A model generated the notes under the pieces. The model was not told the origin of the DNA. It searched no databases and was given only the letters and a program-made list of their open reading frames with translations. Positions 8,096-59,748 of a DNA stretch of 64,000 nt are shown here, piece after piece. The translations under genes were made by a program, and so were the position numbers. The stretch is from Candidatus Tantalella remota. Lineage in GTDB: Bacteria > Omnitrophota > Gorgyraeia > Tantalellales > Tantalellaceae. How positions within the stretch are numbered: position 1 is the first letter of the stretch; every line of letters starts with the position of its first letter. Location of the stretch: the NCBI GenBank assembly GCA_030765685.1, contig JAVCCB010000041.1, positions 75,549 to 139,548 of the forward strand, written 5' to 3'.

Positions 8096-9808
8096 CTAGG
8101 TTGCGCGCATTACCTCTTCAAGTGTCGTAAGCCCCTTGGCGAACTTAATCATCGCGTTATCCCGCAGTTTTCTTACCCCTTTTTTTGCGATGTATTCCCT
8201 GATATCATTTTCCGAGGCTTTCGAGTTTATCATTTCTTTTATTTTGTCGTCGATCAAAAGCGTCTCCAGCGTACCCAGCCTCCCCCGGTACCCCGTATCG
8301 TTACATTTTTTACACCCCTTGCCTTTGTAGAACTTGTCTACGTCTTTGACTTCGGGATATTTTTTTCTTATCTCATCTATCACTTCCTTCGGAATATCGG
8401 TCTCGGTCTTGCAATGCGGACATATCCTCCTTAAAAGCCTTTGCGCGCAGGCCATTACGAGGCTTGAAGCGACAAGGAACGGCTCTATCCCCATATTGAC
8501 AAGACGAGTTATCGCTCCTATCGAGTCGTTGGTGTGCAGCGTACTCAGCACCATCTGCCCCGTCAAGGAAGCTTTGATAGCAATATCAGCTGTCTCAAAA
8601 TCCCGTATTTCCCCGACCATTATGATATCAGGGCTCTGCCTGAGTATAGCTCTCAGTCCATTCGAAAAATCAAGGCCTATCTCGGGATGCACCGCTATCT
8701 GGGTTATACCGGCCACCTGGTACTCGACCGGATCCTCCACCGTGATAATGTTGCGTTCAGGGACATTCATCTCATTGAGTACCGAATAAAGGGTCGTAGA
8801 TTTACCACTCCCGGTGGGGCCGGTAACGAGAATTATGCCGAAAGGTTTCGACAAGGCTTCCTTAAAATCATCAAGAGGCCCGGGCAGAAACCCCAGCGTC
8901 TCAAGACCTACTGAAAGATTGCTTTTATCCAGCGCGCGCAGGACCATTTTATTACCGTAGGTTATCGGCAACGCCGACACCCTGAAATCAACCTCTTTCT
9001 TATCCATCTTTATCCTGAACCGCCCGTCCTGCGGTATCCTATTCTCGGTAATATCCATATTGGACATTATCTTAAGGCGCGTGAGAACAGAGTTCTGGTT
9101 CTTCGACGGAAGGTTGAACACATCGTGAAGTTCTCCGTCGATACGGTATCTTATCTTAAGGTTCTTTTCCTGAGGCTCTATGTGAATATCGCTCGCGCGA
9201 CGTTTTAGAGCTTCCCCTATTATCAGGTTGACCATCTTTACTATGGGCGCCGTTTTGCTTTGCTTGGCGATCTCCATAAGGTCCTGCCCCTCTGACTTCC
9301 CTATAACCTCGACATCCGTGCCTTCCTCTTCTTCCTCAAGAACAATAGAAGTAAAATCTTCCTCTTCATTGTTCTCATAAAAAGAGTTAAGCGCGTCCTG
9401 CAATTCTCTCCGCGTGGACAGTACAAGATGGACGTCACATCCCGTTACCGTCCTAACGTCATCAAGCGCAACTATGTCAGCGGGGTCTGATACTACAAGC
9501 GTCAGGCTTTTCCCCTTTTCCGCCAAGGGCACTACGACATACCTACGAGCAAGTTTTTCCGGCAAAAGGTTTACGGTATGAGCTTCCAGGTTAACCCTTG
9601 ACATATCTATCGGCGGGATCCCCAACTCACGGCTCAACACCTCCAAAAGGTCCGAGTCGGCGATTACCCCCTTTTCAACAAGCAGGTTGATAATATCGCC
9701 TTCGCCTTTGCTCTCGGCATCCTTGAGCGCCCCCTTAAGCTGCCGGACGTTTACCAAACCGCTGCCTTCAAGCGCTTTAAGGATCCTGGTTTTTATAGAT
9801 GGTCCCAT
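8096..9808 (-). CDS. pilB: PilB/GspE-family assembly ATPase, paralog 1
   Basis: 570 aa; N-terminal GSPII_E_N-like region, Walker A GPTGSGKSTTLYS, Asp/His boxes, tetracysteine CPHC...CKKC zinc motif. Confidence 0.85.
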   Translation of the reverse strand: MGPSIKTRILKALEGSGLVNVRQLKGALKDAESKGEGDIINLLVEKGVIADSDLLEVLSRELGIPPIDMSRVNLEAHTVNLLPEKLARRYVVVPLAEKGKSLTLVVSDPADIVALDDVRTVTGCDVHLVLSTRRELQDALNSFYENNEEEDFTSIVLEEEEEGTDVEVIGKSEGQDLMEIAKQSKTAPIVKMVNLIIGEALKRRASDIHIEPQEKNLKIRYRIDGELHDVFNLPSKNQNSVLTRLKIMSNMDITENRIPQDGRFRIKMDKKEVDFRVSALPITYGNKMVLRALDKSNLSVGLETLGFLPGPLDDFKEALSKPFGIILVTGPTGSGKSTTLYSVLNEMNVPERNIITVEDPVEYQVAGITQIAVHPEIGLDFSNGLRAILRQSPDIIMVGEIRDFETADIAIKASLTGQMVLSTLHTNDSIGAITRLVNMGIEPFLVASSLVMACAQRLLRRICPHCKTETDIPKEVIDEIRKKYPEVKDVDKFYKGKGCKKCNDTGYRGRLGTLETLLIDDKIKEMINSKASENDIREYIAKKGVRKLRDNAMIKFAKGLTTLEEVMRAT

Positions 9809-9815
9809 TCCTGAT

Positions 9816-11543
9816 CTACTCCATTACCCTATCGTCGATAGTCGTTCTAAGCACTTCCTCGAGGGAAGTGACCCCTTCAACAACGTTCTCTATACCGTTC
9901 TCTCTTAACGTTTTCATTCCCTCGTCCCTCGCGATTTTCTTTATTTCGTTTCCCTGCGCGCGTTCAAATATAAGTTCCTTGATACCCGGGGTCAGCTCTA
10001 TGCATTCCATTATCCCCATCCTACCCATATATCCCGTGTTGGAGCACCGATTGCATCCGCCGGGCCTGTATATCTTAGCCTTTTTCCCTTTTTGGTCAAA
10101 AAGCCCGTACTTTTCGGTGATCTCTTTCGTGGGAGCATAGGGCTCCCTGCACTCCGTACAGAGTTTTCGGAGCAAGCGCTGTGAGGCTATCAGCTCAACG
10201 GACGCCGCTATCAGAAAGGGTTCGACCCCCATGTTCATCATCCTTACAATGGACTCTGAAGCGGTGTTTGTATGAAGCGTGCTGAGCACAAGATGTCCGG
10301 TAAGCGCCGATTTTATAGCTACGTCCAGCGTATCATAATCCCGTATTTCCCCTACCATGATGATGTCCGGATCCTGCCGGAGTATGGACCGCAGACAGCT
10401 CGCGAACGTCAGATCTATGTCGTTGTTTATCGACACCTGATTTATCCCGGGAAGTTCATATTCAACCGGGTCTTCTACGGTCACCAGGTTCTTTCCCGGA
10501 TCATCCACATGTTTCAGTATGGAATAAAGAGTGGTCGTTTTCCCGCAACCGGTAGGCCCGCACGCAAGGATCATTCCGTGTGGCTTTTTACCGGCTTTCT
10601 TCATTTTGTCTATGTCACGTTCATGGAATCCGAGAGCGTCGATATCTATCCTGGCCTGACCCTTATCCAAAACCCTGAGCGCTACCTTCTCCCCGAAACT
10701 GGCAGGCACCACGGATATCCTGAAATCCACCTTACGGTTATCCATTTTTATCCTGAACCTGCCGTCCTGCGGCAGGCGGCGTTCGGCTATATCGAGATCC
10801 GACATGACCTTGAGCCTGGATATAAGCGCATGGTGAAATTTCCTCGGAGGATTGTATCTTTCGACAAGCACCCCGTCTATCCTGTACCTTACCCTGGAAT
10901 TCGATTCCATGGGTTCTATCAGTATATCGCTGGCCCGCTCTTTGACCGCGCGGCTTACGATCATATTCGTAAGCTTTACCACCGGTGCTTCTTCCGTTAT
11001 TCTCAAGAGTTCCCCGGAAGACACCTCCTCCTCGCCATCACCGGAGACCATCTCCATCGAAGCGCTTTTTATATCATCGACGATTTCGCTTATCTCTTCG
11101 TCCGCGGAAGCCTCGTAGTATCTTTGTATGGCTTCTTGCATACCGTCTTCGGTCACGATCACGGGACTGATCTCCAGGTTGGTCATGACCTTAAGATCGT
11201 CCAAAGCAAACACGTTCAGAGGATCGACCATAGCGACGGTCAGCTGCCTTCCGACGCGGGATATCGGAAGCGCGTGATACGAAGCGGCTATTCTTTTTGG
11301 GATAAGCCCTACGATCTCATCGTCAACCTTCAACCTGGAAAGGTCCAGTGGCGGAATGCCTATTTCCTGGCTGAAAAGCGTAAGAAGATCCTCTTTTTTA
11401 AGAGCTCCCGTCCCTATCAGGATCTCCGCGAGACTGCCGCCTCTCTGAGCGTGTATCTCCCGTGCCTTATTGAGGTCCTCTTCCAAAAGAACTTTTCTCT
11501 GCACCAGAAGATCACATGTCTTTTTCGTAAGCGTAAGCGCCAT
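9816..11543 (-). CDS. PilB/GspE-family assembly ATPase, paralog 2
   Basis: 575 aa; Walker A GPTGCGKTTTLYS, tetracysteine CTEC...CNRC, collinear with paralog 1 but clearly diverged. Confidence 0.85.
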   Translation of the reverse strand: MALTLTKKTCDLLVQRKVLLEEDLNKAREIHAQRGGSLAEILIGTGALKKEDLLTLFSQEIGIPPLDLSRLKVDDEIVGLIPKRIAASYHALPISRVGRQLTVAMVDPLNVFALDDLKVMTNLEISPVIVTEDGMQEAIQRYYEASADEEISEIVDDIKSASMEMVSGDGEEEVSSGELLRITEEAPVVKLTNMIVSRAVKERASDILIEPMESNSRVRYRIDGVLVERYNPPRKFHHALISRLKVMSDLDIAERRLPQDGRFRIKMDNRKVDFRISVVPASFGEKVALRVLDKGQARIDIDALGFHERDIDKMKKAGKKPHGMILACGPTGCGKTTTLYSILKHVDDPGKNLVTVEDPVEYELPGINQVSINNDIDLTFASCLRSILRQDPDIIMVGEIRDYDTLDVAIKSALTGHLVLSTLHTNTASESIVRMMNMGVEPFLIAASVELIASQRLLRKLCTECREPYAPTKEITEKYGLFDQKGKKAKIYRPGGCNRCSNTGYMGRMGIMECIELTPGIKELIFERAQGNEIKKIARDEGMKTLRENGIENVVEGVTSLEEVLRTTIDDRVME

Positions 11544-11552
11544 AGATCATTC

Positions 11553-12002
11553 TCACTTGCCCGCCGGCTTATACAGCTTATTCAGAGCTTCGTGAATAGC
11601 TGTGACCGTACATATGAATACATGGATTTTTTTCTTGCTCATCATCTCCACGTCCTCGATGGCTTTTTCATTAAGCGGGTTTGACATCGCCACTGTCAGC
11701 ATGTCACCGATAACGTCAATAGGAAGTATGCTGTACTGCCGAGCGACGTTCTCCGGGACGACCCTTGCCATCTCCTTCTTAAACTCGTACTGCTCAAGCG
11801 GTAGGAACGGGAACCCGTACTGCATCGTAAGGGCATGGACTATGTCGTCTTCTTTGACATACCCCAACTTGATAAGTATCTCACCCAGCAGGCCACCTTC
11901 ATGTCTTTGAAAATCCAAAGCGCGCTGCAGCTGCTCAGTTGTTATGACTTCGCTGGATACCAGTATTTCTCCGAGTTTTTTACCTATGCGTTTTATCGGC
12001 AT
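11553..12002 (-). CDS. standalone MshEN (GspE N-terminal) domain protein, putative c-di-GMP receptor
   Basis: 149 aa with two tandem 24-residue MshEN motifs: KLGEILVSSEVITTEQLQRALDFQ and LLGEILIKLGYVKEDDIVHALTMQ (pattern RLGxxLLxxGxIxxxxLxxALxxQ). No ATPase domain. Confidence 0.6.
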   Translation of the reverse strand: MPIKRIGKKLGEILVSSEVITTEQLQRALDFQRHEGGLLGEILIKLGYVKEDDIVHALTMQYGFPFLPLEQYEFKKEMARVVPENVARQYSILPIDVIGDMLTVAMSNPLNEKAIEDVEMMSKKKIHVFICTVTAIHEALNKLYKPAGK

Positions 12003-12035: not shown

Positions 12036-13097
12036 TCATCCAAGCAGTTTCTCAAGCTCTTCTATGTCCCCCGACCTCGCCAGCGCCTCCTCTACAGAAA
12101 CAACACCCGCCTTATAAAGTTCTGAAAGCGACTGGTTCATCGTACGCATCCCGTATTTCTGGGACGTCTGTATTATCGAATATATCTGATGCTCTTTCGC
12201 GTCCCGTATCATACTCCTGATAGCCGGCGTGGCCACGAGCACCTCTGACGCCAGTATCCTGCCCGGCTTGTCCTTAAATGGAAGCAGTTGCTGGGACAAT
12301 ATCCCAAGCAGAACGAACGACAGCTGTGCCCTTATCTGCTTCTGCTGGTGGGCTGGAAATACGTCTACCATCCTATTTATCGATTGCGTACTGTCGGACG
12401 TGTGCAGTGTCCCCAGCACCAGGTGTCCCGTATCGGCTATAACGAGCGCCTGCTGTATCGTATCAAGGTCGCGTAGCTCTCCTATCAGTATCACGTCCGG
12501 ATCCTGCCTTAAAACGTGCCTCAGGGCCTTTCCAAAAGACCGGGTGTCTTCTATGAGCTGTCTCTGGTCGATAATGGCTTTTTTATTCGCGTGAACAAAT
12601 TCTATCGGGTCCTCGACCGTCACGATGTGGCAGCTTCGATTCGCGTTTATCTCGTCCACCATAGCGGCAAGCGTCGTAGATTTCCCGCTTCCGGTAGCAC
12701 CCGTGACCAAAACCAGCCCTTTCTGTGCCCTGCAGAAACTCCTCACTATGTCGGCGGGTAATCCGCATTCCTCTATCGTCAGTATCTTCAGCGGTATGAG
12801 ACGTATCGCGCAGCCGATATTACCGCGCTGAAGAAAAAGGTTACCCCTGTACCTGCCTACATCTTCTATGGTAAAAGAAAAATCGAGTTCCATTTCATAT
12901 TCAAATTTTTTGACCTCTTCCGCGTTTATGAACCCGTAAACTATTTTCTGCACCTCCTCTGCCGAAAGCGCCCCACCTTCGAGACGAACAAGTTCGTTGT
13001 CTATCCGGTAATGCATCGGAGAATTAGCGCTTATGTGAAGATCTGACGCCCTTTTCTCGACCATATCGATAAGTATTTTTTTGATGTCCTCTCTCAT
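12036..13097 (-). CDS. pilT: PilT twitching-motility (retraction) ATPase
   Basis: 353 aa; Walker A GATGSGKSTTLAAM, HLVLGTLHT His box, PilT-typical length, no N-terminal extension. Confidence 0.85.
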   Translation of the reverse strand: MREDIKKILIDMVEKRASDLHISANSPMHYRIDNELVRLEGGALSAEEVQKIVYGFINAEEVKKFEYEMELDFSFTIEDVGRYRGNLFLQRGNIGCAIRLIPLKILTIEECGLPADIVRSFCRAQKGLVLVTGATGSGKSTTLAAMVDEINANRSCHIVTVEDPIEFVHANKKAIIDQRQLIEDTRSFGKALRHVLRQDPDVILIGELRDLDTIQQALVIADTGHLVLGTLHTSDSTQSINRMVDVFPAHQQKQIRAQLSFVLLGILSQQLLPFKDKPGRILASEVLVATPAIRSMIRDAKEHQIYSIIQTSQKYGMRTMNQSLSELYKAGVVSVEEALARSGDIEELEKLLG

Positions 13098-13133: not shown

Positions 13134-14549
13134 TTACATCCAGCCCACGACCCTGTTCCGTCCGTCCTCGCGAGCTTTTTTCATATAACTCCTGGCTTTC
13201 TCTATTATCTCCTTGCCGGTAGCTCCGTCTATCGGGTTCTCACCCACCCCTATGCTCGCGGTCACCCGGTCGCCTTCGGAGGCCGAGATCTCGAGTTCTT
13301 CTATGATCTTTCGCAAGTTCTCCGCCAACTCCATACTTTCCCTCTTGTTCATCTCCGGCAGCAAGATCCCGAATTCGTATTCTTCAAAACGCGCTATTTT
13401 CCCGATGGGCGGCAAAACCTTGGCCAGCATGTCCGATATGTGCTTTATTACCTGCTGGGACTTTGACAGGCCATAGTCATCGGAATACCGGTCAAAATTA
13501 TCCAGGCCCAGGACCACCAGAGAACAGGGCCTCTGATAATATACCGCCCTGTTGATCTCGTCTTCCAGGCGATCCTGCAAATACGAAAGCGTATAAAGCC
13601 CCGTCAGCGTATCGACGACTTCCAGGTCTTTCACCTTTTCGAATGCCTGCGATGTCTGGTATCCGAGAACCAGTTCCTTCTCAAAAGCACGAAGAACCTC
13701 TATATCCTCCGTACTGAAAGTAGCGGACGCGGTGTAATTGGCCAGCACCATGACTCCTATGACACTGTTGTGAAGTTTTAGGGGGAACATAACCATGTTC
13801 ATGCCGCCAAATTTATCTTTAAGTTCTTTCTGCCACGGCTTCTTTGTCGGGCGCGTATCCACCAGCAGGTATTCGTTGCGAACGAACAGTTTTTCTATGT
13901 CCCCAAGCTCTCCCTCTATCCGTGATACCGGGACTTCTTTTTCGCAATTATCACAGAAAGACCTCATGGAATACTTGCCCCCCTTTTCCTTCATAAAAAT
14001 CGCGCAGAATCCTCCGTACAATTCGCCGGCTATCCTGTCCGCGGCAAAACTGGTTATCTCATTAAAATCGGCGCCGGTGGAGATCAGGTCCCCCAGTCTC
14101 ATAAGATTCGTAAGGGTCAGGACCTTCTTATGCACCCTCGCATTCAAGACGGCAGTCTTACGGCTGTAAGCCTGCAACTCGCCGATGTAGTTTCGCATCT
14201 TACCCGTCATAGTGTTGACCGCGCTGGCAATGTCCCCCAGCTCGTCCTCTCTCATCACCATTATCTTGGAATCATACTGACCCTCAGCGATTATCTTTGT
14301 CTCAAGCGCGAGGTTGATGATCGGGTTCACTATTTCCTTCATCAAAATGTATCCCGCATAAGACACCCAGAGGACGAACATGACGATCGCCGTTACCTGG
14401 AACGTGCTGGCCGGGGATCCGGGAAATATGTAATAAGTCACAAGATACGCTATTACGAGCAGCGGTATGATGGACATCAAAGAAAAAGCCAAAAGTAGTT
14501 TATACTTAAGGCTTTTTGTCCCGACCGAAAGATATTGTAGTAAACCCAT
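13134..14549 (-). CDS. membrane HAMP-GAF-GGDEF-like protein with degenerate active site
   Basis: Two N-terminal TM helices, a HAMP-like linker, and a C-terminal GGDEF fold (LDNFDRYSDDYG...). The catalytic RYGGEEF position reads RFEEYEF, and no RxxD I-site sits upstream. Confidence 0.7.
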   Translation of the reverse strand: MGLLQYLSVGTKSLKYKLLLAFSLMSIIPLLVIAYLVTYYIFPGSPASTFQVTAIVMFVLWVSYAGYILMKEIVNPIINLALETKIIAEGQYDSKIMVMREDELGDIASAVNTMTGKMRNYIGELQAYSRKTAVLNARVHKKVLTLTNLMRLGDLISTGADFNEITSFAADRIAGELYGGFCAIFMKEKGGKYSMRSFCDNCEKEVPVSRIEGELGDIEKLFVRNEYLLVDTRPTKKPWQKELKDKFGGMNMVMFPLKLHNSVIGVMVLANYTASATFSTEDIEVLRAFEKELVLGYQTSQAFEKVKDLEVVDTLTGLYTLSYLQDRLEDEINRAVYYQRPCSLVVLGLDNFDRYSDDYGLSKSQQVIKHISDMLAKVLPPIGKIARFEEYEFGILLPEMNKRESMELAENLRKIIEELEISASEGDRVTASIGVGENPIDGATGKEIIEKARSYMKKAREDGRNRVVGWM

Positions 14550-15224: not shown

Positions 15225-16976
15225 TCACTTATCATACAAACCGCTCGCTTCAAGCTCTGAGAGGAGATACTCTTTATCCACTTCCACAATAATGTGATCC
15301 CAGGGCAGAACGTCTTCCTTCGAATAAGTGCGGCACGCATATTCCGTCATGTCCACTCCCTCAGAGTCAAACGCTTCTTTCCATATATTGATGTTGAAAC
15401 TTTCATTCCACCCGTCCATCCTGGCGCCTTTTTGCCACGCGCGGTATATGATGTCCGAGATCTCGCGCCCCCCTCTCGATATACACGCTTCCAAAAGCGC
15501 CTGGTCAAGGTCATGAAATTCGACTTTTACCTTTTTCGAGGATCCGGACCTTAGAACATCTTTTGTCCGCGACATGCCTTCCGGGTCTTTCATCCCGATC
15601 CACTGCAGGGGCGTATGCGGTTTCGGGATAAACGGGTTGACGCTGACGCGTATCTCAGCGGCACCGCCGGAAGATACTTTTTTCTTGAGCGCGGATATCT
15701 CTTTTCCGAGAGCAACTATTTTCCCTGCCTCATCTTCCGGCTCACCGGGAAACCCTACCATAAAATAAAGTTTCAGCCTTCTCCAGCCGTGACTGAAAGC
15801 CAGAGAAGCTGACTTGCAAAGCACCTGGGTATCTATTTTTTTACCGATAGCTTCTCTCACCTCACCTGAGGCCGCTTCCGGCGCAAAAGTCAGTCCGGTC
15901 TTGCGTATCGCTGATATCATCTCAGGAAGTTCGTAAAAAGCCTCATCCACCCGCAGCGACGGTATCGACAGCGCTACTCCTTCACCGGAAAAATCCTTGT
16001 TAAGAGCCTTGATCAACTCCGCCAGACGCGGATAATTAACACTGGAGAGCGACAGAAGAGCTATACTTTCATAGCCCGTCAGCTCGTATGTCTTCCTGCA
16101 TATATCCCTCACACGCTCGGGCGTCCTTACCCGAACAGGACGATTTACTATTCCCGCCTGGCAAAAGCGGCATCTGTTGGGACACCCCCGCATGATCTCC
16201 ACGGCGATCCTGTCATGGACGACCCTGACCAGGGGAACTATCTGCTTTTCAGGATAATACGCGTTCTCCAGAGACGCAATCGATACCTTTCGTATCTTAT
16301 CCGGGATCCCGTCCTCAACAGCTTCCAGTCCCATAAATTTACCTTCCGCTTGTATAGCCCGGTAAAAACGCGGCACATACACTCCCTCCAAAAGCGAAAG
16401 CTCTTTCAGTATCTCGTTCCTGTCGTCAGTTCTTTCTTTGGCTTTCCTGTACGCTTCGATAAACACGGGTAAAGCTTCCTCGGCGTCACCGATAAGAAAA
16501 GCGTCCACGAACGCGCTCATAGGTTCAGGATTCGATGCGCAGGCGCCTCCCGCGATAACAAGCGGTTCTTCGTTACCCCTGTCCTTTGACAGGACGGTGA
16601 CCCCTCCGAGCGAGAGCATGTCCAAAACGTTCGTATACGTCAACTCATACGAAAGGCTGAACCCCACAATATCGAACTTGTCCATGTCCGTCCTTGATTC
16701 AAGACTGAACAGCTTCAGGCGGTTCTCGATAAGCTCTCCCCTCATATCCTCCCACGGCATAAACACCCGTTCACATACGATTTTCTCCTGTTCATTTAAG
16801 AGATGATACAAAAGACGCAGCCCCAGATAGCTCATCCCCACTTCGTACGAGTCGGGATACGCGATAAGCACCGAAGTCCTGTCCGGAGAGAATCCCTTGC
16901 GTACGCTGTTGGTCTCTTCGCCTATATAGCGTCCCGGCTTTTGTATTTTATGCAATATGTCTTGGATAGTATTCAT
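15225..16976 (-). CDS. B12-binding-like / radical SAM domain protein (TIGR03960-like)
   Basis: 583 aa; N-terminal B12-binding-like region, CPNRCRFCQAG (CxxxCxxC radical-SAM cluster motif). Confidence 0.7.
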   Translation of the reverse strand: MNTIQDILHKIQKPGRYIGEETNSVRKGFSPDRTSVLIAYPDSYEVGMSYLGLRLLYHLLNEQEKIVCERVFMPWEDMRGELIENRLKLFSLESRTDMDKFDIVGFSLSYELTYTNVLDMLSLGGVTVLSKDRGNEEPLVIAGGACASNPEPMSAFVDAFLIGDAEEALPVFIEAYRKAKERTDDRNEILKELSLLEGVYVPRFYRAIQAEGKFMGLEAVEDGIPDKIRKVSIASLENAYYPEKQIVPLVRVVHDRIAVEIMRGCPNRCRFCQAGIVNRPVRVRTPERVRDICRKTYELTGYESIALLSLSSVNYPRLAELIKALNKDFSGEGVALSIPSLRVDEAFYELPEMISAIRKTGLTFAPEAASGEVREAIGKKIDTQVLCKSASLAFSHGWRRLKLYFMVGFPGEPEDEAGKIVALGKEISALKKKVSSGGAAEIRVSVNPFIPKPHTPLQWIGMKDPEGMSRTKDVLRSGSSKKVKVEFHDLDQALLEACISRGGREISDIIYRAWQKGARMDGWNESFNINIWKEAFDSEGVDMTEYACRTYSKEDVLPWDHIIVEVDKEYLLSELEASGLYDK

Positions 16977-33413: not shown

Positions 33414-36400
33414 TTATGCCGCTATAAGTGCTTTTCTTGCGGCCATATTGAACTCTTCTATAGCCTCATAGCTCATTCTAGACGCTTCCGGGAGTACCAG
33501 GACTATATGTCTGAGTACTTTTGCTATACCGCTTGCTGTATCCGGAAGGTCCAGATCGCTGCCAAGCATGAGCTTATACTGATTTTTGATGAACCCGACT
33601 ATCGGGCCGTATGTCATATGCATATCTTCTTCGTTCACGTTCTCGGGGATATTCGACGCTGCAAGAGCGATATTTACCATACCCGTGACCCGGAGAAGAT
33701 ATTCCTCCATGTCACCCTTGGGGACTTCAACATCAACATGCCCTTCCCCCTCAAAATCAGGCGCTTTGCAGTAAACCGCTATGAGGGATTCATCGGATCC
33801 TCTATCACTTGAGAACGGTCTAGCTTTTATATCAGCTTTAGACCTTTTATCCAGAATATCCGCGTACTTGCGTATGATACTTACCTGCGACCTGCTTAGT
33901 TTCGACTGGTCATATTTGATAGTGTATGTCCTGTCTTCCTGAAGCTGAGCGTGAAGCAGATCAATCGCCAAAACCGCCGCCTCCTCCGCGTCTTTAGTAG
34001 TCTCGGGGATTCCCGTGGGTGAGCCTTTGAGGTTCTGCATCTCTGATTCAAGTTTCAGAAATCCCCCGAGAGAACCCCCTTCGGGAATAAATAATCCACG
34101 GCTTAACAAAACTTCCTTTATGTCATCATCTAGGATAAGTTTTTTATCAGGGTTTGCCCCTATCTTGATCAAAACTTTCACGGCAGAGAACACCTGCACA
34201 ACCAGACACTCGTCAAAAGAAGCCATGTCTTTGCCAGGATTAGTTTCGCTCAGAAAACCTTCCCTATCCGTTGGCACAGCTAATCGAATGAATCCCGATT
34301 CGCTTGCCATCTCATGTCCGAGCACACCTCGTATACATTTTTTAGCGCTATCATCGTTAGTGTTTTCAATATTACGTATTACCTCTCCGTCCGGATGTGT
34401 CAACATTCCGCCTGAATGATACCAATACGCTATTGTTCCGTCCTGATAGTAAGTCTCTCCCTCCGGATTCCCAACAGGCTCTTTTGGCAACATTTCCCTG
34501 CTAGGGTTCGCACGTCCATATATAAACTTATTGTCTCCATCCAGTTGCATACTAAATATCGCCGCGTCATCCAATGAACGACTTATACTCTCCGAAAGAG
34601 CGTATCTAAAAGGTCTCTCTTTCCCTGAAAGCGTCTCACTCTCGGACTGGACTTTTATATCCGGAAACTCTTTCGGACGAATAGAACCCTTGGGTTTATC
34701 ACCAAAAGAACTGCTCTCTTCACCCGTTCCCTGCCGCGCCTCGGTGCCTTTATCGGGAAGATCCGCAGGTGAACCTTTGGTTTTTTTCTCCTGTTCTTGT
34801 GCTATTTGAAATCCCGCAGTTACTATATTACCGCTTCTGCCGGGTCCCCCTGAAGGAGTGATCTTATGATAATCCGCTCGTCTTATTATCCCCAGGCCCG
34901 CTCCGCTTCCCTTGCCTCTTGTTCCATTGACTCCGTCCCAAAAATCTATGAAATCCTGAATGTGATCCCTGGGCTTAACGCTGGTATCAATAGGACTTCC
35001 CACATCCACGCCGTTGATCTCTATATATTTCTTACCGTTTTCATGTTTATAACGAATAATAAGAAATCCTCCGGAAGAGTACCTCGAGATATTACTTGAG
35101 ATCTCCCATGCCGTCCTTGCCACACCATTCAAAGGATATTCATCCTCAGGGACCAGAGGATCAGTATTGTTGCCAACGCTTCCAAATACCGTGCTTCCGA
35201 TAGCAGTCATTTCTTCTTCTGTAAATCCTATCCGCTCAACAAAATCCTTATTCGGCCTGCCCGACCATATCGTCTTTATACCTGATACGGAAAACCCGGG
35301 TTGTATTCTACGATGTCGTTGGGGAGCGATAAAAACCACCTTTACATCCGGCATCTGTTTGAGCTTCTTGATGGCGGTTCCCAACTGTTCGTCATCGCCT
35401 TCCAATAATGCTTTCCATGATTTGTTTCGTAGATCTAAAAAGTTTTCCTCCCCGGGAACATCCACACCGAATTTTTCTAAAGCTTTTTCCTCGGCGTCCA
35501 TATTTGTCTCTGGAAGACCCCCGGGTGAGCCTTTGGGTTTTTCACCAACAGAAATACTCTCTTCGCCCGTCCCCTGCCGCGCCTCGGTTCCTTTATCAGA
35601 AAGATCCACGGGTGAGCCTTTGGTTTCCCTTCCGTGTTTCCCGGCTAAGACCTTTATTTCAGTTACGGGCTCATCGGTCAACTCGAACGGTTCTTTTTCT
35701 CCGACGATCACCGGGGACTTTACCGTTCTGAGCAAGATCACATCAGACGGAAAATACTTGAGGTCCGTCTCTTCCAGCGGGTCGTCATAACGCCAGGACT
35801 TCATACCGATAGCTGTTTTGTAATTCCAGTCCCCCTTGATGACCACAAGGTCCAGCTCCGCAAACTCCTTTAATATATCCAGCTTTCCCGCCGCGTACAG
35901 GTCTTCACCATCAGTAAAAGCATCCGTGGCGGTCATCTGAAGGGTCCCGCTCCTTAACGCCTCCTCTAGAGTCACAGCAAGCGACATTGTCTCGGAAGTA
36001 TCCGCCATCGTGTTGATAAAATCGATCAAGCCTTCTTTTGTGACATCGCTTATCATAAACGGCATTTTGCGCGTAAAGAGTTTAACAGTCTTACCTTCTT
36101 CAAGTATCCGTGCCGCGATCATAAGGTCTATCAAAAGCTCCCCGTAATTATCCAGGACTATCCCTACTTTATTTTTTCGCTCCAACAGCTTCACTGCCTG
36201 AGACAGATGCTCGCTCTCTTCCTCCCGGGTAAATAATTTTCGAGCTTCTGCTGCTATGTCGACATTCTCGCTTTTAAGCAGCGAGTCGAACCTGTTAAAA
36301 GACGCGCTGAGCTTTAAAAGCTGTGAGGGCGTCAGGGACTCAAAAAGAGATACATGCTCTCTGTACAGACTTAAAGCAAAACCATTCAACCGGTCGCGGG

Positions 36401-39400
36401 CAGCGCCAAAAGGATCTTCCACAAACCTGCCCGCCGAGCCGAATATCTCTGCCATCGCCCGCGGGTACCGGATCTTTCGAGCCGATCCCGTTCTCACCGT
36501 CTCAGCTTCCTCCCTTTTTATCCTGACTATATTCCTCACCACTTCCGCGGTCGTCTCAAGCTCTCCACGCTCGTTCGTCACGACAAAATCGAATTCCCCG
36601 CTGTGCTCCATCTGATCTTTCGCGTTTCGCATACGAACGGTGATCTCTTCTTCTGTCTCAGAGCCTCTCTTTTTTAACCTTGACGTCAGCTCATCCATAC
36701 TCTCGGCTTTTATGAAAATACTTATATTGTTTTTGGGGAACATCTCCCGTATCTGCCTGGCTCCTTCGGGATCGACATTTACTATGATGTCTTTCCCGCC
36801 GGCTATAAGGTCGTCAATATGATCTTTCTCCAGCCCGCAAAACTCTCCCGGGCGCACTTCCACGTCCTGCAGAAAGGCCCCCTCATCTTCCTTTTCCTTA
36901 AAGTTCTCCTTTGACGTGAAAAAATAATGGACTCCGTCTTCCTCCATCTCCCCCGTTTCAAGAGAACGGGGTTTTCTTGTAGTCGTGCTTACCGCCCTCT
37001 CAAGGCCGGGCAGCCTTGCTGTCAGTTTCGCTATAGCCGCGTCCTTACCAGCACCGCTCGGACCCGATACTATAATGATAAGCGGATCCCCGGCCGGATG
37101 ATTAAAAAGTCCTTTTTCCGCCTCTATTCCGGCCATTTCAAACCCTGCCCTTTTAGCTTCATCACCGGCATTTTTACCTATTATCCCGAAAACTACCGAA
37201 AACGTTTTTCTTATGTCCTCCGCCCAGAAATCTTCACCCGTTACCTGAGTGACAATGGGCTCTCTCTCTGTCTCCGGAACCTCGGCGCCCAGCTTCCGCC
37301 TGCAGTATTTGCTTATGGGAAGATGTATGTCGTCGGCAAGAGCCTCCCACATATCCCTGCCGGCATTCGGGTTCTTCGCGGCCTCGTATCTTACGTCCCT
37401 GTTAACATATCCGGGCAACTGACTTAAAACTACCAGATCCTCATGGTAAGTCGCGCTGTTCCTGGCGGCGAAAAATAAAGGAACCCAGTGCCCCTCTTCC
37501 AGGGATATCCGCAGTACTTCCTTCAGGATGGACGGATCTCTGGATACACTTGCCAGGGTACTTAGAACCGCTTCCGGCGTAGAGTTCTCGGGAAAGGCTG
37601 CCTTCCCGGAGTATGCTTCGTCTATAACAGTGCCAAGATCGTATCCGGAGAGGCCTGATATCCTCCTGCCGCATATATCAAGGATACCGGGCAGATAAGA
37701 ATGAAAAACTGCTATGGCTTCAGCGCGAAAACGTTTCAACTCCACCAAAGGAGGCCCCTTGTCACCATTAGCTTCAATATACTCCCCGCCTATGACCCTC
37801 GTCTCTCGCCCGTAGAACCGCTGGACATCGTCACGAAAAGACAGAATAAAGTCATAATAACGGTCCGCGAATTCCCTATCCTTTTCCGTCAAAGGTATAT
37901 CAAGATATTTCAATGTGCCTAAAAAGAACGAGAAATATTTGAACATTCCCGCGTCATGTTTCAGATTGATGTCCGCGTCGCTTACCCCCCGGGTCCGCTC
38001 CTCCGCTATGAGATTACCCATCGCGAAGAAAAGAGCCGTTTCAGCTTTTTTCGAACGGATCTCTACGGGGGATAGGCCAAGAATATCCCCCAGAGAGGCT
38101 TCAGTTCCAAGCGGTGTAGCGTCAAGTATCATCATCCTATCATAAGGATAATCAATAAAGAGTTCACGCATCTCATCTTTTAAACCGTGCCTTACCTGTA
38201 TGGTCTTGCCGGTAACAATCTTTACAGCGTCAAGAAATGGCCCGATACCCGGGTCTTTCCTGCCGGACTCTACGATAAAAAGATCAAGGTCGGAATAAAA
38301 GTTGGATTCCTCACGGGATACGCTGCCGCTTACAAGAACATCCGTCGAAGGCCTCAGGTAGATCTCTTTCAGTTTCAAAAGGACGGCACGGTCCAAAGCA
38401 GCATACTGCCTTCCCGTTTCCCTTCCTTCGGGCCGTCCTGTCTCGAGAGCCCGATCCCTCACCCTTCCTTTTTCTGAAGCATATTGACGGGCACGTCTCG
38501 CGAGATATGGATCCACTTTCGCGGCGATATTTAAAACATTACCGGGATCTACGGCTAAGACCTCGCCCTGTATTATCTTCCGGTACTCTTCGACCGGCAA
38601 AAATATGGGAATGATCCCGCTCGCGTCACTTTTATCCCCTATCATTATTTCGCTGCCGTTATGCATGAAGAACTGCACCTTCCTGAAGTCTCTTTCCGGC
38701 GACTCTTCCAGGAGATCCCGCGCCTTATTGAGAAAATGATTGAAATCCATATCAATACATACATCGCAGAAAGAAGGAGCTGTCTCCATGAAACGGTTTA
38801 TTTTCTTCTTACGACGTTCCATAAGCGATGTTATCGGGCGGTCCTCGTCCCCGATCTCGCCAAGGTCGATCTTGTCAAGATTTATCCCGTCACGGGCCAT
38901 ACAACACAGCGACTGGGTCGAGTTAGCCAGGACTATTATCCTTGTAGCACCTATAAGGCACTCATCAAAATCCTTCTTTGGCGTATAGGTGACTCCGTAC
39001 GGACCTGCTACCCTGAAATCCGAATCTTCATATCTCTCTCTTGCCTCCTTGAACTTTTTCATCGCCGCCTCCAGAAGATGCGGCTTTTCTTTATAGAACC
39101 CCTGATCGAACGTCTTCCTCACCGCTACCCAGTTCACGCCTGCTTTCTTCATTATCCGTATAAAATCTTCCACTTCACTATGGTTCTCAGGCATTATAAG
39201 GAACGTCGCTCCAATAAGCAGCTCCCCATCCCTTCCCAGTTCATGCCTCTTCTGAGAGATCTTTCCGAGGTTTTCCACCAGTCTGTCGAACGTGAATGCG
39301 CGTTTCTTGGGACGATGCACTTTGACCCTTGTCTCATTGGTAGCTGCGTTGACACTCACTCGTATGTGATCCATATACCGGCTTATTACGTCTATTAACC

Positions 39401-59310: not shown

Positions 59311-59748
59311 CTACCAATACAGTTTTTCAAAACGCTCGGAGTATCTCTTGATCCATTCTTTCGACGCTTCCTGCAGCGTCATCTCTTTGCCGAGCTGCAA
59401 AGAACGCAAAACGCGATACTCTTCTATCAGATAGATCTGTTCTATAAGTTTTACTTTGAACGCGTCGGCATAAGTCGTGAACGAAACACCTACAGAAAAC
59501 AACCCTGTCGCGTCGTCTTTTACGCAATATTCTACTTTAGCTTTTATGTTGAAGACTTTATCGTAAAGCGGCATCTGGAGTTTTATCACGGCTTTCTCAG
59601 GCACGTCCTTCTTGGCCATGAACATGAGTCCCCCCTCCGAGAAGTTGACCGTCTCGGTCTTCTCGAACTCCTCGTCCTCTGACACCTGGAATTCAAGCGG
59701 GTTGACGAGAAGGTGTCGTATGAAACGCCTTCTTTCTTTCTCTGACAT
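59311..59748 (-). CDS. PilZ-domain protein (putative c-di-GMP effector)
   Basis: ERRRFIRH (RxxxR) followed about 25 residues later by NFSEGGLMF ((D/N)xSxxG), the two PilZ c-di-GMP-binding motifs. Confidence 0.6.
   Translation of the reverse strand: MSEKERRRFIRHLLVNPLEFQVSEDEEFEKTETVNFSEGGLMFMAKKDVPEKAVIKLQMPLYDKVFNIKAKVEYCVKDDATGLFSVGVSFTTYADAFKVKLIEQIYLIEEYRVLRSLQLGKEMTLQEASKEWIKRYSERFEKLYW

Follow-up and report, generated by a model that had tools for sequence, protein, structure and literature searches.

A free-standing MshEN-domain protein as a candidate c-di-GMP sensor subunit of the type IV pilus extension machinery in Omnitrophota

In V. cholerae MshE, c-di-GMP is bound by an MshEN domain that forms the N terminus of the ATPase and combines a two-sub-domain fold with two 24-residue motifs, a 5-residue spacer between them, and a Gly/Leu/Gln set of ligand-contact residues (5HTL; PMC5013675). 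In this domain (VcMshEN), G11L abolishes c-di-GMP binding and G40I weakens it 72-fold (supplement of PMC5013675). The GSPII-B module of T. thermophilus PilF (8PDK), a covalent part of an ATPase that also carries the non-binding module GSPII-A, has no arginine at these positions, with Lys in motif I (K167) and Leu in motif II (L196). It binds c-di-GMP with a KD of 6 nM, the highest affinity measured for an MshEN-type domain, and a hydrophobic residue at the first position of the motif has been proposed to predict very high affinity (PMC11731258).

Other arrangements have been described. Cthe_1107 is a (MshEN)2-T2SSE ATPase, and P. aeruginosa PA3740 is an MshEN-type receptor with a binding motif but without an ATPase (both Wang 2016 Suppl. 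Table 4; PMC5013675). In Xanthomonas, separate proteins bring c-di-GMP control to a motif-less PilB: an adaptor with a PilZ fold, which does not itself bind c-di-GMP, forms a ternary complex with the PilB N-domain and FimX, a degenerate GGDEF-EAL protein whose EAL domain is the sensor (7LKM/7LKO; PMC8389850). How the signal passes from MshEN to the ATPase is open, as a 2024 review of PilB calls the contribution of the N1D "poorly understood" (PMC11656802) and for the authors of the PilF work the mechanism is still "the subject of future studies" (PMC11731258).

Here we analyze a stand-alone MshEN protein from a pilus locus of Ca. Tantalella remota (Omnitrophota), encoded within a 64-kb stretch of DNA (the window). 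MshEN receptors themselves are already known, but in the searchable literature on stand-alone MshEN, on PA3740, and on pili or c-di-GMP in Omnitrophota we met no account of this family.

A stand-alone MshEN protein in a pilus locus

The initial annotation of this DNA described a protein made essentially only of an MshEN domain and wedged between pilB and pilT. Both statements hold: the gene lies between pilT and a full-length pilB (Table 1), and Pfam, NCBIfam, and Foldseek all place its product in MshEN and not in an unrelated fold. The 149-aa protein, whose ATG start codon closely follows a Shine-Dalgarno-like GGGAGA box, consists of an MshEN_N four-helix bundle followed by a T2SSE_N1/ND1 sub-domain. 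It matches Pfam MshEN (PF05157; E 3.3e-19, 69.1 bits, cutoff 23.1) and the NCBIfam model NF053729, "c-di-GMP_motif" (68.5 bits, cutoff 38); residues 9-61 cover profile positions 1-53 of 53, and the 53-residue module is therefore present. Sequence matches in the PDB are as strong as E 3e-41, and together these scores far exceed chance expectation. The AlphaFold (AF2) model (pLDDT 89.5) has helices at residues 10-16, 22-35, 39-45, and 51-62, then an alpha/beta unit. Its top Foldseek match is V. cholerae MshEN with c-di-GMP (5HTL; TM 0.79/0.84, rmsd 2.2 Å), and the fold matches include PilF GSPII-B (TM 0.73/0.77), a PilB-N/PilZ complex and, for ND1, the N1 domain of EpsE/GspE complexed with EpsL/GspL (2BH1, 4PHT).

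Pfam detected neither the T2SSE ATPase core (PF00437) nor a PilZ domain in the 149-aa protein, the fold being that of MshEN, and TIGR02538 aligned over profile positions 1-137 only, with 80.8 bits against a cutoff of 675.65. The protein is confirmed as a complete MshEN domain and nothing else.

Table 1. Features of the pilus locus and of the PilZ gene (positions in the window)
Feature	Position	Strand	Evidence
Stand-alone MshEN protein, 149 aa, ATG start	11553..12002	minus	ORF, Pfam, NCBIfam, AF2
c-di-GMP motif I, residues 9-32, KLGEILVSSEVITTEQLQRALDFQ	11907..11978	minus	Aligned without gaps to VcMshEN R9-Q32
c-di-GMP motif II, residues 38-61, LLGEILIKLGYVKEDDIVHALTMQ	11820..11891	minus	Alignment to VcMshEN
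Linker and T2SSE_N1/ND1 sub-domain, residues 62-147	11562..11819	minus	Pfam match, residues 62-147
Proximal PilB, 575 aa, full-length extension ATPase	9816..11543	minus	TIGR02538, 654 bits
Distal PilB, 570 aa, second extension-type ATPase	8096..9808	minus	TIGR02538, 631 bits
PilC platform protein, 406 aa	6862..8082	minus	Pfam T2SSF, E 7.5e-66
Two pilin-like genes downstream of pilC, 117 and 109 aa	5854..6702	minus	N_methyl motif, synteny
PilM, 341 aa, actin-like platform protein	2280..3305	minus	Pfam PilM_2, E 1.2e-48
PilT retraction ATPase, 353 aa	12036..13097	minus	TIGR01420, 453 bits (cutoff 319)
Membrane-anchored HAMP-GAF-GGDEF protein	13134..14549	minus	Pfam GGDEF, 1.4e-28; HAMP; GAF
Unlinked PilZ-domain protein	59311..59748	minus	Pfam PilZ, E 7.6e-9

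The proximal pilB begins 9 nt past the MshEN stop codon. In the window the two genes are in the same frame, with one stop codon and these 9 nt between them. The GGDEF gene is likely the first of the operon. A promoter-like site lies ahead of it at 14633-14605, which is weak evidence; the scan returned 19 promoter-like sites where 12.4 +/- 3.5 were expected; the terminator scan found no convincing internal terminator. Both scans are weakly consistent with a single operon starting at the GGDEF gene.

Ligand-contact residues in the stand-alone protein and in the neighboring PilBs

Over residues 1-66 the protein aligns with V. cholerae MshEN without gaps and with identical numbering, and its two 24-residue motifs are likewise separated by five residues (RHEGG). 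Five positions, G11, Q32, G40, G47, and Q61, are invariant in all 80 species-level orthologs. Conservation reaches at least 95% at L10, L14, L25, L38, L43, I54, and L58, and L10, G11, L14, L25, L29, and Q32 of motif I are kept in at least 92%. The leucine clusters of the binding motif (L10, L25, L29, L39, L54, and L58) are complete except that L54 is Ile, a conservative replacement.

The motifs had been called intact. This is right for the glycines and glutamines, and the motif model was passed, but the word slightly overstates the case, as K9, E18, L38, and I54 stand where the strict 2016 consensus has R, G, R, and L. The arginine that this consensus places at the first motif position (R9, R38) is thus missing from both motifs. 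Family members have K or Q at position 9 and, in 78 of 80 orthologs, L at position 38; I54 is invariant, and position 18 varies. K9 and L38 satisfy the extended consensus (R/K/L)LGxx... that was derived from PilF GSPII-B (Neissner et al. 2024); family members with Q9 lie beyond even this. Alignment over about 80 species bears out the conserved Leu, Gly, and Gln positions, with Arg replaced by Lys and Leu as in GSPII-B, whose motif II is one residue shorter. Relative to V. cholerae MshEN, the replacements are R9 to K, R38 to L, L54 to I, and D108 to N. The last concerns the guanine-contacting Asp of the C-terminal sub-domain (D108 in MshEN, D266 in PilF), which is Asn in 74 of 79 orthologs. We count this substitution, and the deviation of position 9 (K or Q), E18, and I54 from the published consensus, against the predicted binding of c-di-GMP.

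The two PilBs present a different picture. The proximal PilB has a degenerate MshEN_N motif (NF053729, 25.1 bits), and in the window it carries C, A, and E in place of G11, G40, and Q61. Among the residues listed for its 70 orthologs, C, Q, T, or M replaces G11, and Q61 is mostly E or G. In the distal PilB, G11 is replaced by L, I, V, or T, G40 by I or K, and Q61 by E. Across PilB N-domains the replacement of G40 is mostly S, or else I or K, and the motif-I Gln (Q32) is kept in 36 of 70 proximal and 12 of 62 distal PilBs. Over four loci, NF053729 scored 61-69 bits for the stand-alone protein and 25-41 bits for the proximal PilB; it gave no match to the distal PilB, in the window or in the three other loci, and thus no detectable c-di-GMP motif. 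Both neighboring PilBs have therefore largely lost the ligand-contact residues, with the motif glycines and the motif-II Gln gone. Some proximal PilBs may, judging from sequence, retain residual binding, since in a few species their scores (41.0 and 36.3 bits) come close to the cutoff of the motif model.

The PilB N-domains keep the fold without G11, G40, and Q61, so folding does not depend on these residues, and the fact that they never vary in the stand-alone protein speaks for ligand binding. By analogy with characterized MshEN domains, the stand-alone protein probably binds c-di-GMP, and because its motif is the Lys/Leu variant, a high affinity, in the nanomolar range, is probable.

Distribution, synteny, and selection

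The stand-alone family, with proteins of about 146-150 aa, is present in 423 species-representative genomes. In three protein searches and a cluster look-up, all named relatives among the best 80-150 matches listed were Omnitrophota. Titles in a genome scan named Omnitrophota as well as MAGs labelled Planctomycetia/Planctomycetales and, once, Deltaproteobacteria, all with the same locus. Among the matches listed, the family is so far known only from Omnitrophota.

Its position is constant. The MshEN gene lies immediately 5′ of pilB-pilB-pilC in all 77 loci with downstream sequence, at a median distance of 14 nt and with overlap in some loci, and pilC is syntenic wherever enough downstream sequence is available. 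The order MshEN-pilB-pilB-pilC holds whether the upstream gene is GGDEF, pilT, or REC, so that in the Omnitrophota loci examined the stand-alone MshEN is fixed upstream of pilB-pilB-pilC.

Could the gene be a non-functional remnant, such as a piece of pilB left by truncation or frameshift, or else an artefact of ORF calling? In databases the name "type IV pilus assembly protein PilB" is frequent among family members (others are "hypothetical protein"), and one Paenibacillus reference strain is known to carry such a truncated pilB fragment. The name is wrong, however, because the ATPase core is absent and the protein ends at residue 149. Across hundreds of clusters the family keeps to a uniform length of about 145-152 aa, and with a dN/dS of about 0.05 (median 0.045, maximum 0.11) the gene is under very strong purifying selection. 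Mean pairwise identity of the stand-alone protein (58.5%) comes near that of the ATPase cores (62-65%) and is far higher than that of the PilB N-domains (37-45%). In addition, the gaps of 33 and 9 nt to its neighbors leave no room for remnants of an ATPase. The identity of about 30% (29-31%) to the PilB N-termini of the same genome is not that of a recent copy, and we rejected a recent duplication of the PilB N terminus. Programmed read-through or recent fission was likewise discarded, as the MshEN-pilB gap modulo 3 is distributed as by chance (27/24/26 over 77 loci), and this lack of frame bias argues against a read-through fusion. These conservation data effectively refute a remnant. The "MshEN-encoding pilB fragment" of Paenibacillus was considered as an analogue and set aside as a deletion remnant. 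P0210 (723 aa, with an N terminus 46% identical) has the length expected of a Rosetta-stone fusion of MshEN and PilB but contains no PilB; in its sequence MshEN is accompanied by a PilZ-like segment, a TM helix, and a large extracellular region.

The position next to pilT raises another possibility, that MshEN is an N-terminal domain supplied in trans to PilT, a docking and c-di-GMP-sensing module that would control retraction. In the window the MshEN gene lies 33 nt downstream of pilT, and by Pfam and NCBIfam PilT has no N1/MshEN domain of its own. Yet pilT is absent between the GGDEF gene and the MshEN gene in 23 of 79 loci (29%), including that of Ca. Velamenicoccus archaeovorus, and from the REC-linked variant, while MshEN stays beside pilB. 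We therefore consider control of PilT very improbable. A trans-acting sensor or adaptor for both extension and retraction ATPases had been proposed in the initial annotation; loss of the PilB motifs, selection, and synteny support its extension half, and the link to PilT is not conserved.

A probable sensor acting in trans on pilus extension

The explanation that we favor, and hold to be probable, is that the free-standing MshEN protein is a c-di-GMP receptor and works as a regulatory subunit in its own right within the type IV pilus extension machinery (PilB/PilC) of Omnitrophota. The N-terminal four-helix bundle would bind one c-di-GMP between the two 24-residue motifs, and binding would reorient the C-terminal ND1 sub-domain, as in PilF GSPII-B. 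ND1 would then dock on the motor or platform, where either PilM/PilC or the N-terminal domains of both PilB paralogs, or all of these, would receive it. In solved complexes of homologous ATPases, ND1 is the sub-domain that docks on GspL/PilM (PMC8389850), and PilM is its most likely docking partner here. Pilus extension could in this way be coupled to c-di-GMP for two PilBs that no longer bind the nucleotide themselves. For the stand-alone protein we infer ligand binding, affinity, partner, and sign of regulation alike; as to the sign, the analogy of MshE, PilF, and M. xanthus PilB favors activation of extension.

The arrangement would be a split (MshEN)2-T2SSE architecture, in which the sensing domain is its own polypeptide encoded just upstream of pilB. 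Fused ATPases of this type (Cthe_1107, P0142, and P0184) have the same order of intact MshEN, degenerate MshEN, and T2SSE core; in P0142 and P0184 the intact ATPase-distal and degenerate ATPase-proximal MshEN lie in one polypeptide. Unlike these, the Omnitrophota system consists of two polypeptides, and since the fused ATPases share only about 34-35% N-terminal identity with the stand-alone protein, they are an architectural analogue and not a demonstrated ancestor. The Omnitrophota module resembles GSPII-B in being one of several MshEN modules per ATPase, beside a non-binding one, but it has its own gene and would serve two ATPase paralogs. It also differs from V. cholerae MshEN in being a separate polypeptide. 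PA3740, which we compared by description only, has a highly diverged T2SSE_N1 and belongs to beta/gamma-proteobacteria, whereas the Omnitrophota ND1 is canonical (Pfam 69 bits); PA3740 is not placed in a pilB operon in the literature examined, while the Omnitrophota gene is fixed upstream of pilB-pilB-pilC.

If a conserved sensor is indeed separate from motors that lack the site, signal transfer becomes directly testable, as the parts can be purified, titrated, and mutated independently, and a natural split system would show whether docking in trans suffices or covalent linkage is needed. A functional name would also become available for a family annotated as "hypothetical protein" or wrongly as "PilB," and a likely nanomolar c-di-GMP receptor, by analogy, would be added to an ultra-small, partly predatory or host-dependent phylum whose pili probably play a central part in attachment to hosts.

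A diffusible, high-affinity MshEN subunit, detached phylum-wide and shared by two PilBs (with two such subunits, or a REC partner, in some lineages), might also select the motor that engages the single PilM/PilC platform, and thereby the pilin or the function of the pilus. We regard this reading as tentative and rather doubtful. If it were true, MshEN would signal by docking to partners and not by intramolecular allostery.

It is also conceivable that the protein acts as a c-di-GMP-gated decoy or brake, its free ND1 and the PilB N-domains competing for one docking site on PilM/PilC. It could thereby inhibit motor engagement or determine which PilB (or PilT) occupies the platform, and c-di-GMP would start or stop this competition. 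The GspL/PilM-binding module is ND1, which is complete and canonical in the protein and shares a structural core with both PilBs (L14, L43, P65, P83, G99, P109, and A114), and two PilB paralogs and PilT must share one platform; synteny and conservation speak equally for competition and for a sensor subunit. However, ND1 is only about 33% identical to either PilB, and P68, D96, E116, E119, and F129 never vary within the stand-alone family and occur in neither PilB, the acidic residues among them (D96, E116, and E119) suggesting a different, non-competing interface. Moreover, c-di-GMP bound to MshEN-type domains promotes pilus function in every characterized case (PMC11656802, PMC11731258). Competition of this kind, in either form, therefore appears unlikely.

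Finally, MshEN may be the output partner of the degenerate HAMP-GAF-GGDEF protein in a membrane-tethered complex, similar to FimX-PilZ, that recruits or localizes PilB, with MshEN supplying the c-di-GMP site missing from the dead GGDEF domain. In almost all canonical loci MshEN has the GGDEF gene upstream, either adjacent or beyond pilT, and that this gene is retained although its signature is dead and hypervariable implies that its role is not catalytic. The Xanthomonas ternary complex is a precedent in which one of the separate proteins also has a degenerate GGDEF domain, and the PilB-N/PilZ complex is among the fold matches. Unlike the Xanthomonas adaptor, the separate Omnitrophota protein itself has the MshEN fold and a predicted ligand site, and its resemblance to PilZ adaptors is functional only. 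Against such a partnership, one Omnitrophota sub-lineage has REC in the place of GGDEF and retains MshEN-pilB-pilB-pilC. The GGDEF protein also evolves fast (mean identity 37%, compared with 58.5% for MshEN), unlike a tightly co-evolving obligate partner. A dedicated GGDEF partnership, and with it a MshEN site that makes good the dead domain, seems distinctly improbable to us; it is compatible with the sensor-subunit explanation and does not exclude it.

Where might the ligand come from? The GGDEF protein and a PilZ protein had been noted as c-di-GMP-related genes nearby, and both are real. However, the signature of the former is EEYEF, a degenerate active site, with no RxxD I-site, and across 62 orthologs the signature is hypervariable and degenerate almost everywhere, so that this neighbor is, from its sequence, not a plausible source of c-di-GMP. 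The 64-kb window yielded no diguanylate cyclase whose active site is intact, and we count this, together with the degenerate adjacent GGDEF, against a c-di-GMP sensor. The unlinked PilZ protein is intact, with both RxxxR (RRFIR, residues 7-11) and [D/N]xSxxG (NFSEGG, residues 35-40), which is evidence that the organism uses c-di-GMP.

A short, conserved MshEN protein in the pilus operon

The initial annotation had placed a 149-residue protein consisting only of an MshEN domain between pilB and pilT, and the open reading frame lies exactly there, with both neighbors at close range (see table). Several independent tests agree on its identity. PF05157 (MshEN, Pfam) covers residues 62–147 (E 3.3e-19), and NF053729, the 53-residue c-di-GMP-binding module of NCBIfam, spans residues 9–61 end to end (68.5 bits versus a cutoff of 38). 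Vibrio cholerae MshEN (VcMshEN) aligns without gaps to residues 1–66, so that residue numbers coincide. An AlphaFold2 model based on 34 family members (pLDDT 89.5) has a four-helix bundle and, after it, an alpha/beta unit, and its first Foldseek match in the PDB was MshEN bound to c-di-GMP (5HTL; TM 0.79/0.84, rmsd 2.2 Å). Ranked below it were the T. thermophilus PilF GSPII domains, followed by the X. citri PilB-N/PilZ complex and XpsE-N, with weaker matches to EpsE/GspE N1 domains complexed with EpsL/GspL. A profile search of the protein for an ATPase domain found none, and TIGR02538 aligned through profile positions 1–137 only (80.8 bits; cutoff 675). The MshEN assignment made from sequence is thus confirmed by Pfam as well as by NF053729 and Foldseek.

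Features of the window relevant to the stand-alone MshEN, with the giant ORF discussed at the end
Feature	Position	Strand	Remarks
Stand-alone MshEN, 149 aa	11553..12002	-	ORF, ATG start, GGGAGA box just upstream
PilT	12036..13097	-	stand-alone MshEN begins 33 nt downstream
Proximal PilB, full-length	9816..11543	-	9 nt downstream of stand-alone MshEN
Distal (second) PilB, full-length	8096..9808	-	after proximal PilB
PilC	6862..8082	-	after distal PilB
Two pilin genes	after PilC	-	profile search and sequence
HAMP-GAF-GGDEF protein, membrane-anchored	13134..14549	-	precedes PilT
PilM	2280..3305	-	profile search
PilZ protein, stand-alone	59311..59748	-	profile search; RRFIR and NFSEGG
Radical-SAM protein, Radical_SAM_N2 / B12-binding-like N terminus	15225-16976	-	profile search
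Single 2714-aa ORF	33414-41558	-	profile search

The exact sequence appears in databases under Candidatus Tantalella remota, annotated as a hypothetical protein. Its best 120 relatives are 136–210 residues long (mostly 146–150) and 63–80% identical, and those named are from Omnitrophota. When one representative genome from each GTDB species was scanned, 423 had a confirmed relative; the best 80 comprise Omnitrophota MAGs, a number of them under the title "uncultured Planctomycetia", and Ca. Velamenicoccus archaeovorus LiM, whose genome is complete. Remoter short forms (40–50% identity) among the matches listed are also from Omnitrophota where named; among the best-scoring matches listed, the stand-alone family is confined to this phylum. 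Many GTDB-representative MAGs with the "uncultured Planctomycetia" title and one titled "Deltaproteobacteria" (loci L008, L010, L013, L022, L032 and others) carry an Omnitrophota-type locus with an MshEN 50–95% identical; these are probably mislabelled Omnitrophota genomes.

Could the protein be a fragment of pilB? For 30 informative pairs, the median dN/dS was 0.045 (maximum 0.11), and mean pairwise identity across species was 58.5%, compared with 61.5% for PilT, 62–65% for the PilB ATPase cores, 45% and 37% for the PilB N-domains and 37% for the GGDEF neighbor. Since the family is short and uniform in length, with low dN/dS and conservation like that of the ATPase cores, the stand-alone MshEN is a functional gene and no pilB fragment. 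That it is a remnant is so improbable that we regard this reading as excluded.

Ligand-contacting residues of the stand-alone protein and of the co-encoded PilBs

The two 24-residue strings that the initial annotation had called intact c-di-GMP motifs are residues 9–32 (motif I) and 38–61 (motif II). The window protein departs from the strict consensus of Wang et al. (2016; PMC5013675) at four positions: K9 (for R), E18 (for G), L38 (for R) and I54 (for L). Position 18 makes no ligand contact and varies in the stand-alone family (G/K/E/D/N), and I54 is invariant across it. Lys and Leu at the first positions of motifs I and II are exactly the pair found in PilF GSPII-B (K167, L196), a domain whose KD for c-di-GMP, 6 nM, is ~83-fold lower than that of MshEN; its authors, who widened the consensus to (R/K/L)LG..., proposed that very high affinity can be predicted from a hydrophobic residue at the first motif position (PMC11731258). 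Half of the family has Q9, and in 74 of 79 orthologs the guanine-contacting Asp of the MshEN and PilF C-terminal sub-domain (position 108) is replaced by Asn. Leaving aside I54, N108 and Q9, "intact" is a fair label for the ligand-contacting residues, if not for the strict 2016 consensus.

We aligned 80 stand-alone proteins and, from their own loci, the N-domains of the two PilBs (70 proximal, 62 distal). G11, Q32, G40 and Q61 are present in all 80 stand-alone proteins, and L10, L14, L25, L38, L43, I54 and L58 are at least 95% conserved. Of the Arg, Leu, Gly and Gln positions to which the initial annotation had pointed, Gly, Gln and Leu therefore hold, except that position 54 is Ile, and the Arg positions 9 and 38 are Lys and Leu. 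In proximal PilB, G11 is most commonly replaced by C, Q, T or M, Q32 is kept in 36/70, position 40 is S in 55/70 and G in 9/70, and Q61 is mostly E or G. In distal PilB, L, I, V or T is commonest at position 11, Q32 is kept in 12/62, position 40 is I or K (G in 10/62) and Q61 is E in 45/62. Substitutions at two of these positions have been measured in VcMshEN: with G11L, binding is lost, and with G40I it is 72-fold weaker (supplement of PMC5013675). In four loci, NF053729 scored 61–69 bits with the stand-alone protein and 25–41 with proximal PilB, and did not match distal PilB.

As the PilB N-domains keep the fold without the motif residues, selection for ligand binding best explains why the stand-alone MshEN conserves these residues absolutely; sensing appears to have passed from the motors to a separate subunit. 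At only 29–31% identity to the N-domain of either co-encoded PilB, the protein represents an old, separate lineage. Residues invariant in the stand-alone family and missing from both PilBs comprise a ligand-site set (G11, L38, G40, I54, T59 and Q61) and, in the C-terminal T2SSE_N1 sub-domain (ND1; with its linker, residues 62–147), P68, D96, E116, E119 and F129, which are candidates for a partner surface. The tandem pair of full-length PilBs, both without the c-di-GMP motif, is conserved phylum-wide; the two N-domains show 35% identity, and one PilC is common to the two extension motors.

Synteny across Omnitrophota

The gene order in canonical loci is rodA, radical-SAM, GGDEF, [pilT], MshEN, proximal pilB, distal pilB, pilC and pilins. 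In each of the 77 loci whose sequence extends downstream, proximal pilB directly follows MshEN (median gap 14 nt, at times with overlap). No pilT separates MshEN from GGDEF in 23 of 79 loci, Ca. Velamenicoccus included. One sub-lineage has the order REC, MshEN, pilB, pilB, pilC in another genomic neighborhood (L088:6489-12051 and L089:3519-9042). Given these two variants, the invariant association is with pilB-pilB-pilC, not with pilT or GGDEF. Thus, of the placement between pilB and pilT, only adjacency to pilB extends to every related pilus locus with downstream sequence, and the possibility that the protein serves as an N-domain for PilT, disfavored by this synteny, is very unlikely.

In the REC sub-lineage, a stand-alone REC response regulator stands where GGDEF and pilT would be, and MshEN extends 8 nt into pilB. 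In another sub-lineage, a second stand-alone MshEN of 154 residues, with G11, Q32, G40 and Q61 intact, lies between distal pilB and pilC (contig of P0214, ENA ERZ27297570; L090:1498-1962); the canonical copy upstream of proximal pilB is also present. The radical-SAM gene is kept between rodA and GGDEF in most loci, physically linking the mreCD-PBP2-rodA cell-shape cluster to the pilus operon.

A possible role in c-di-GMP signaling

If the stand-alone MshEN binds c-di-GMP, what do its neighbors contribute? The GGDEF protein is degenerate, as first noted: its signature is EEYEF in the window and is hypervariable over 62 orthologs (FDFDEF and LEDGVF are further examples; one listed signature reads GGDEF), and the RxxD I-site is absent. 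As a lead, a hand alignment to PleD suggests that metal- and guanine-binding residues are presumably lost. Because the signature is degenerate and there is no I-site, the protein is predicted not to be a c-di-GMP source; its role is probably scaffolding or sensory. It is syntenic in nearly all Omnitrophota loci (L001–L087) despite the hypervariable signature, and looks like a conserved non-catalytic GGDEF protein. That the stand-alone MshEN is its obligate partner, in a FimX-like arrangement, is rather unlikely, if compatible with a sensor role.

The PilZ protein noted in the initial annotation has intact RxxxR and NxSxxG motifs, which indicates that Candidatus Tantalella remota uses c-di-GMP; no active diguanylate cyclase was identified within the 64-kb window. 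The PilZ gene lies just upstream of mraZ-rsmH, the head of an apparent cell-division (dcw) cluster, a position that makes a c-di-GMP link to division possible.

MshEN_N binds one c-di-GMP (PMC5013675), and in PilF GSPII-B the C-terminal sub-domain tilts towards its N-terminal counterpart upon ligand binding (PMC11731258). GspE/EpsE dock on GspL/EpsL, which are PilM homologues, via ND1 (PMC8389850), and when MshE, PilF or M. xanthus PilB can no longer bind c-di-GMP, pilus-dependent functions are weakened (PMC11656802, PMC11731258). Combining this background with our data, we consider it probable that the stand-alone MshEN is a trans-acting c-di-GMP sensor subunit for the PilB/PilC extension machinery. 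By docking on the PilB N-domains and/or PilM/PilC, it would make pilus extension by the two PilBs, which lack the motif, responsive to c-di-GMP. A c-di-GMP-gated decoy that competes for PilM is also conceivable, at lower probability. As a sensor subunit, the stand-alone MshEN together with PilB would be the split equivalent of the known (MshEN)2-T2SSE architecture; in two fused relatives, database proteins P0142 and P0184, the distal MshEN is intact and the proximal one degenerate.

Neither the MshEN domain and its ligand nor the regulation of PilB by c-di-GMP is new. A motif-less PilB under c-di-GMP control in trans is known from the Xanthomonas PilZ-FimX system (PMC8389850), and ATPase-less MshEN proteins, namely PA3740 and MshEN_N-only proteins, have been catalogued (PMC5013675). 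In the searchable literature, we found no plain stand-alone MshEN that combines three properties of the present one: it occupies a fixed place upstream of pilB-pilB-pilC in all Omnitrophota loci examined, its K/L motif is of the putative high-affinity type, and it is paired with PilBs whose own sites have been lost.

K/L-type MshEN domains also occur fused to other modules: a DnaA-like AAA+ module (P0186), a REC domain (P0193), and a PilZ-like segment, a TM helix and a large extracellular region (P0210); in P0204, the MshEN domain forms the C terminus of a coiled-coil membrane protein. Several of these architectures are absent from the 2016 list. Finally, the 2714-aa ORF of the window is predicted to encode an unusual giant multidomain protein, with Radical_SAM (residues 636–801), guanylate kinase (1495–1678) and ARMT1-like damage-control phosphatase (1659–1955) domains that span a minority of its length.
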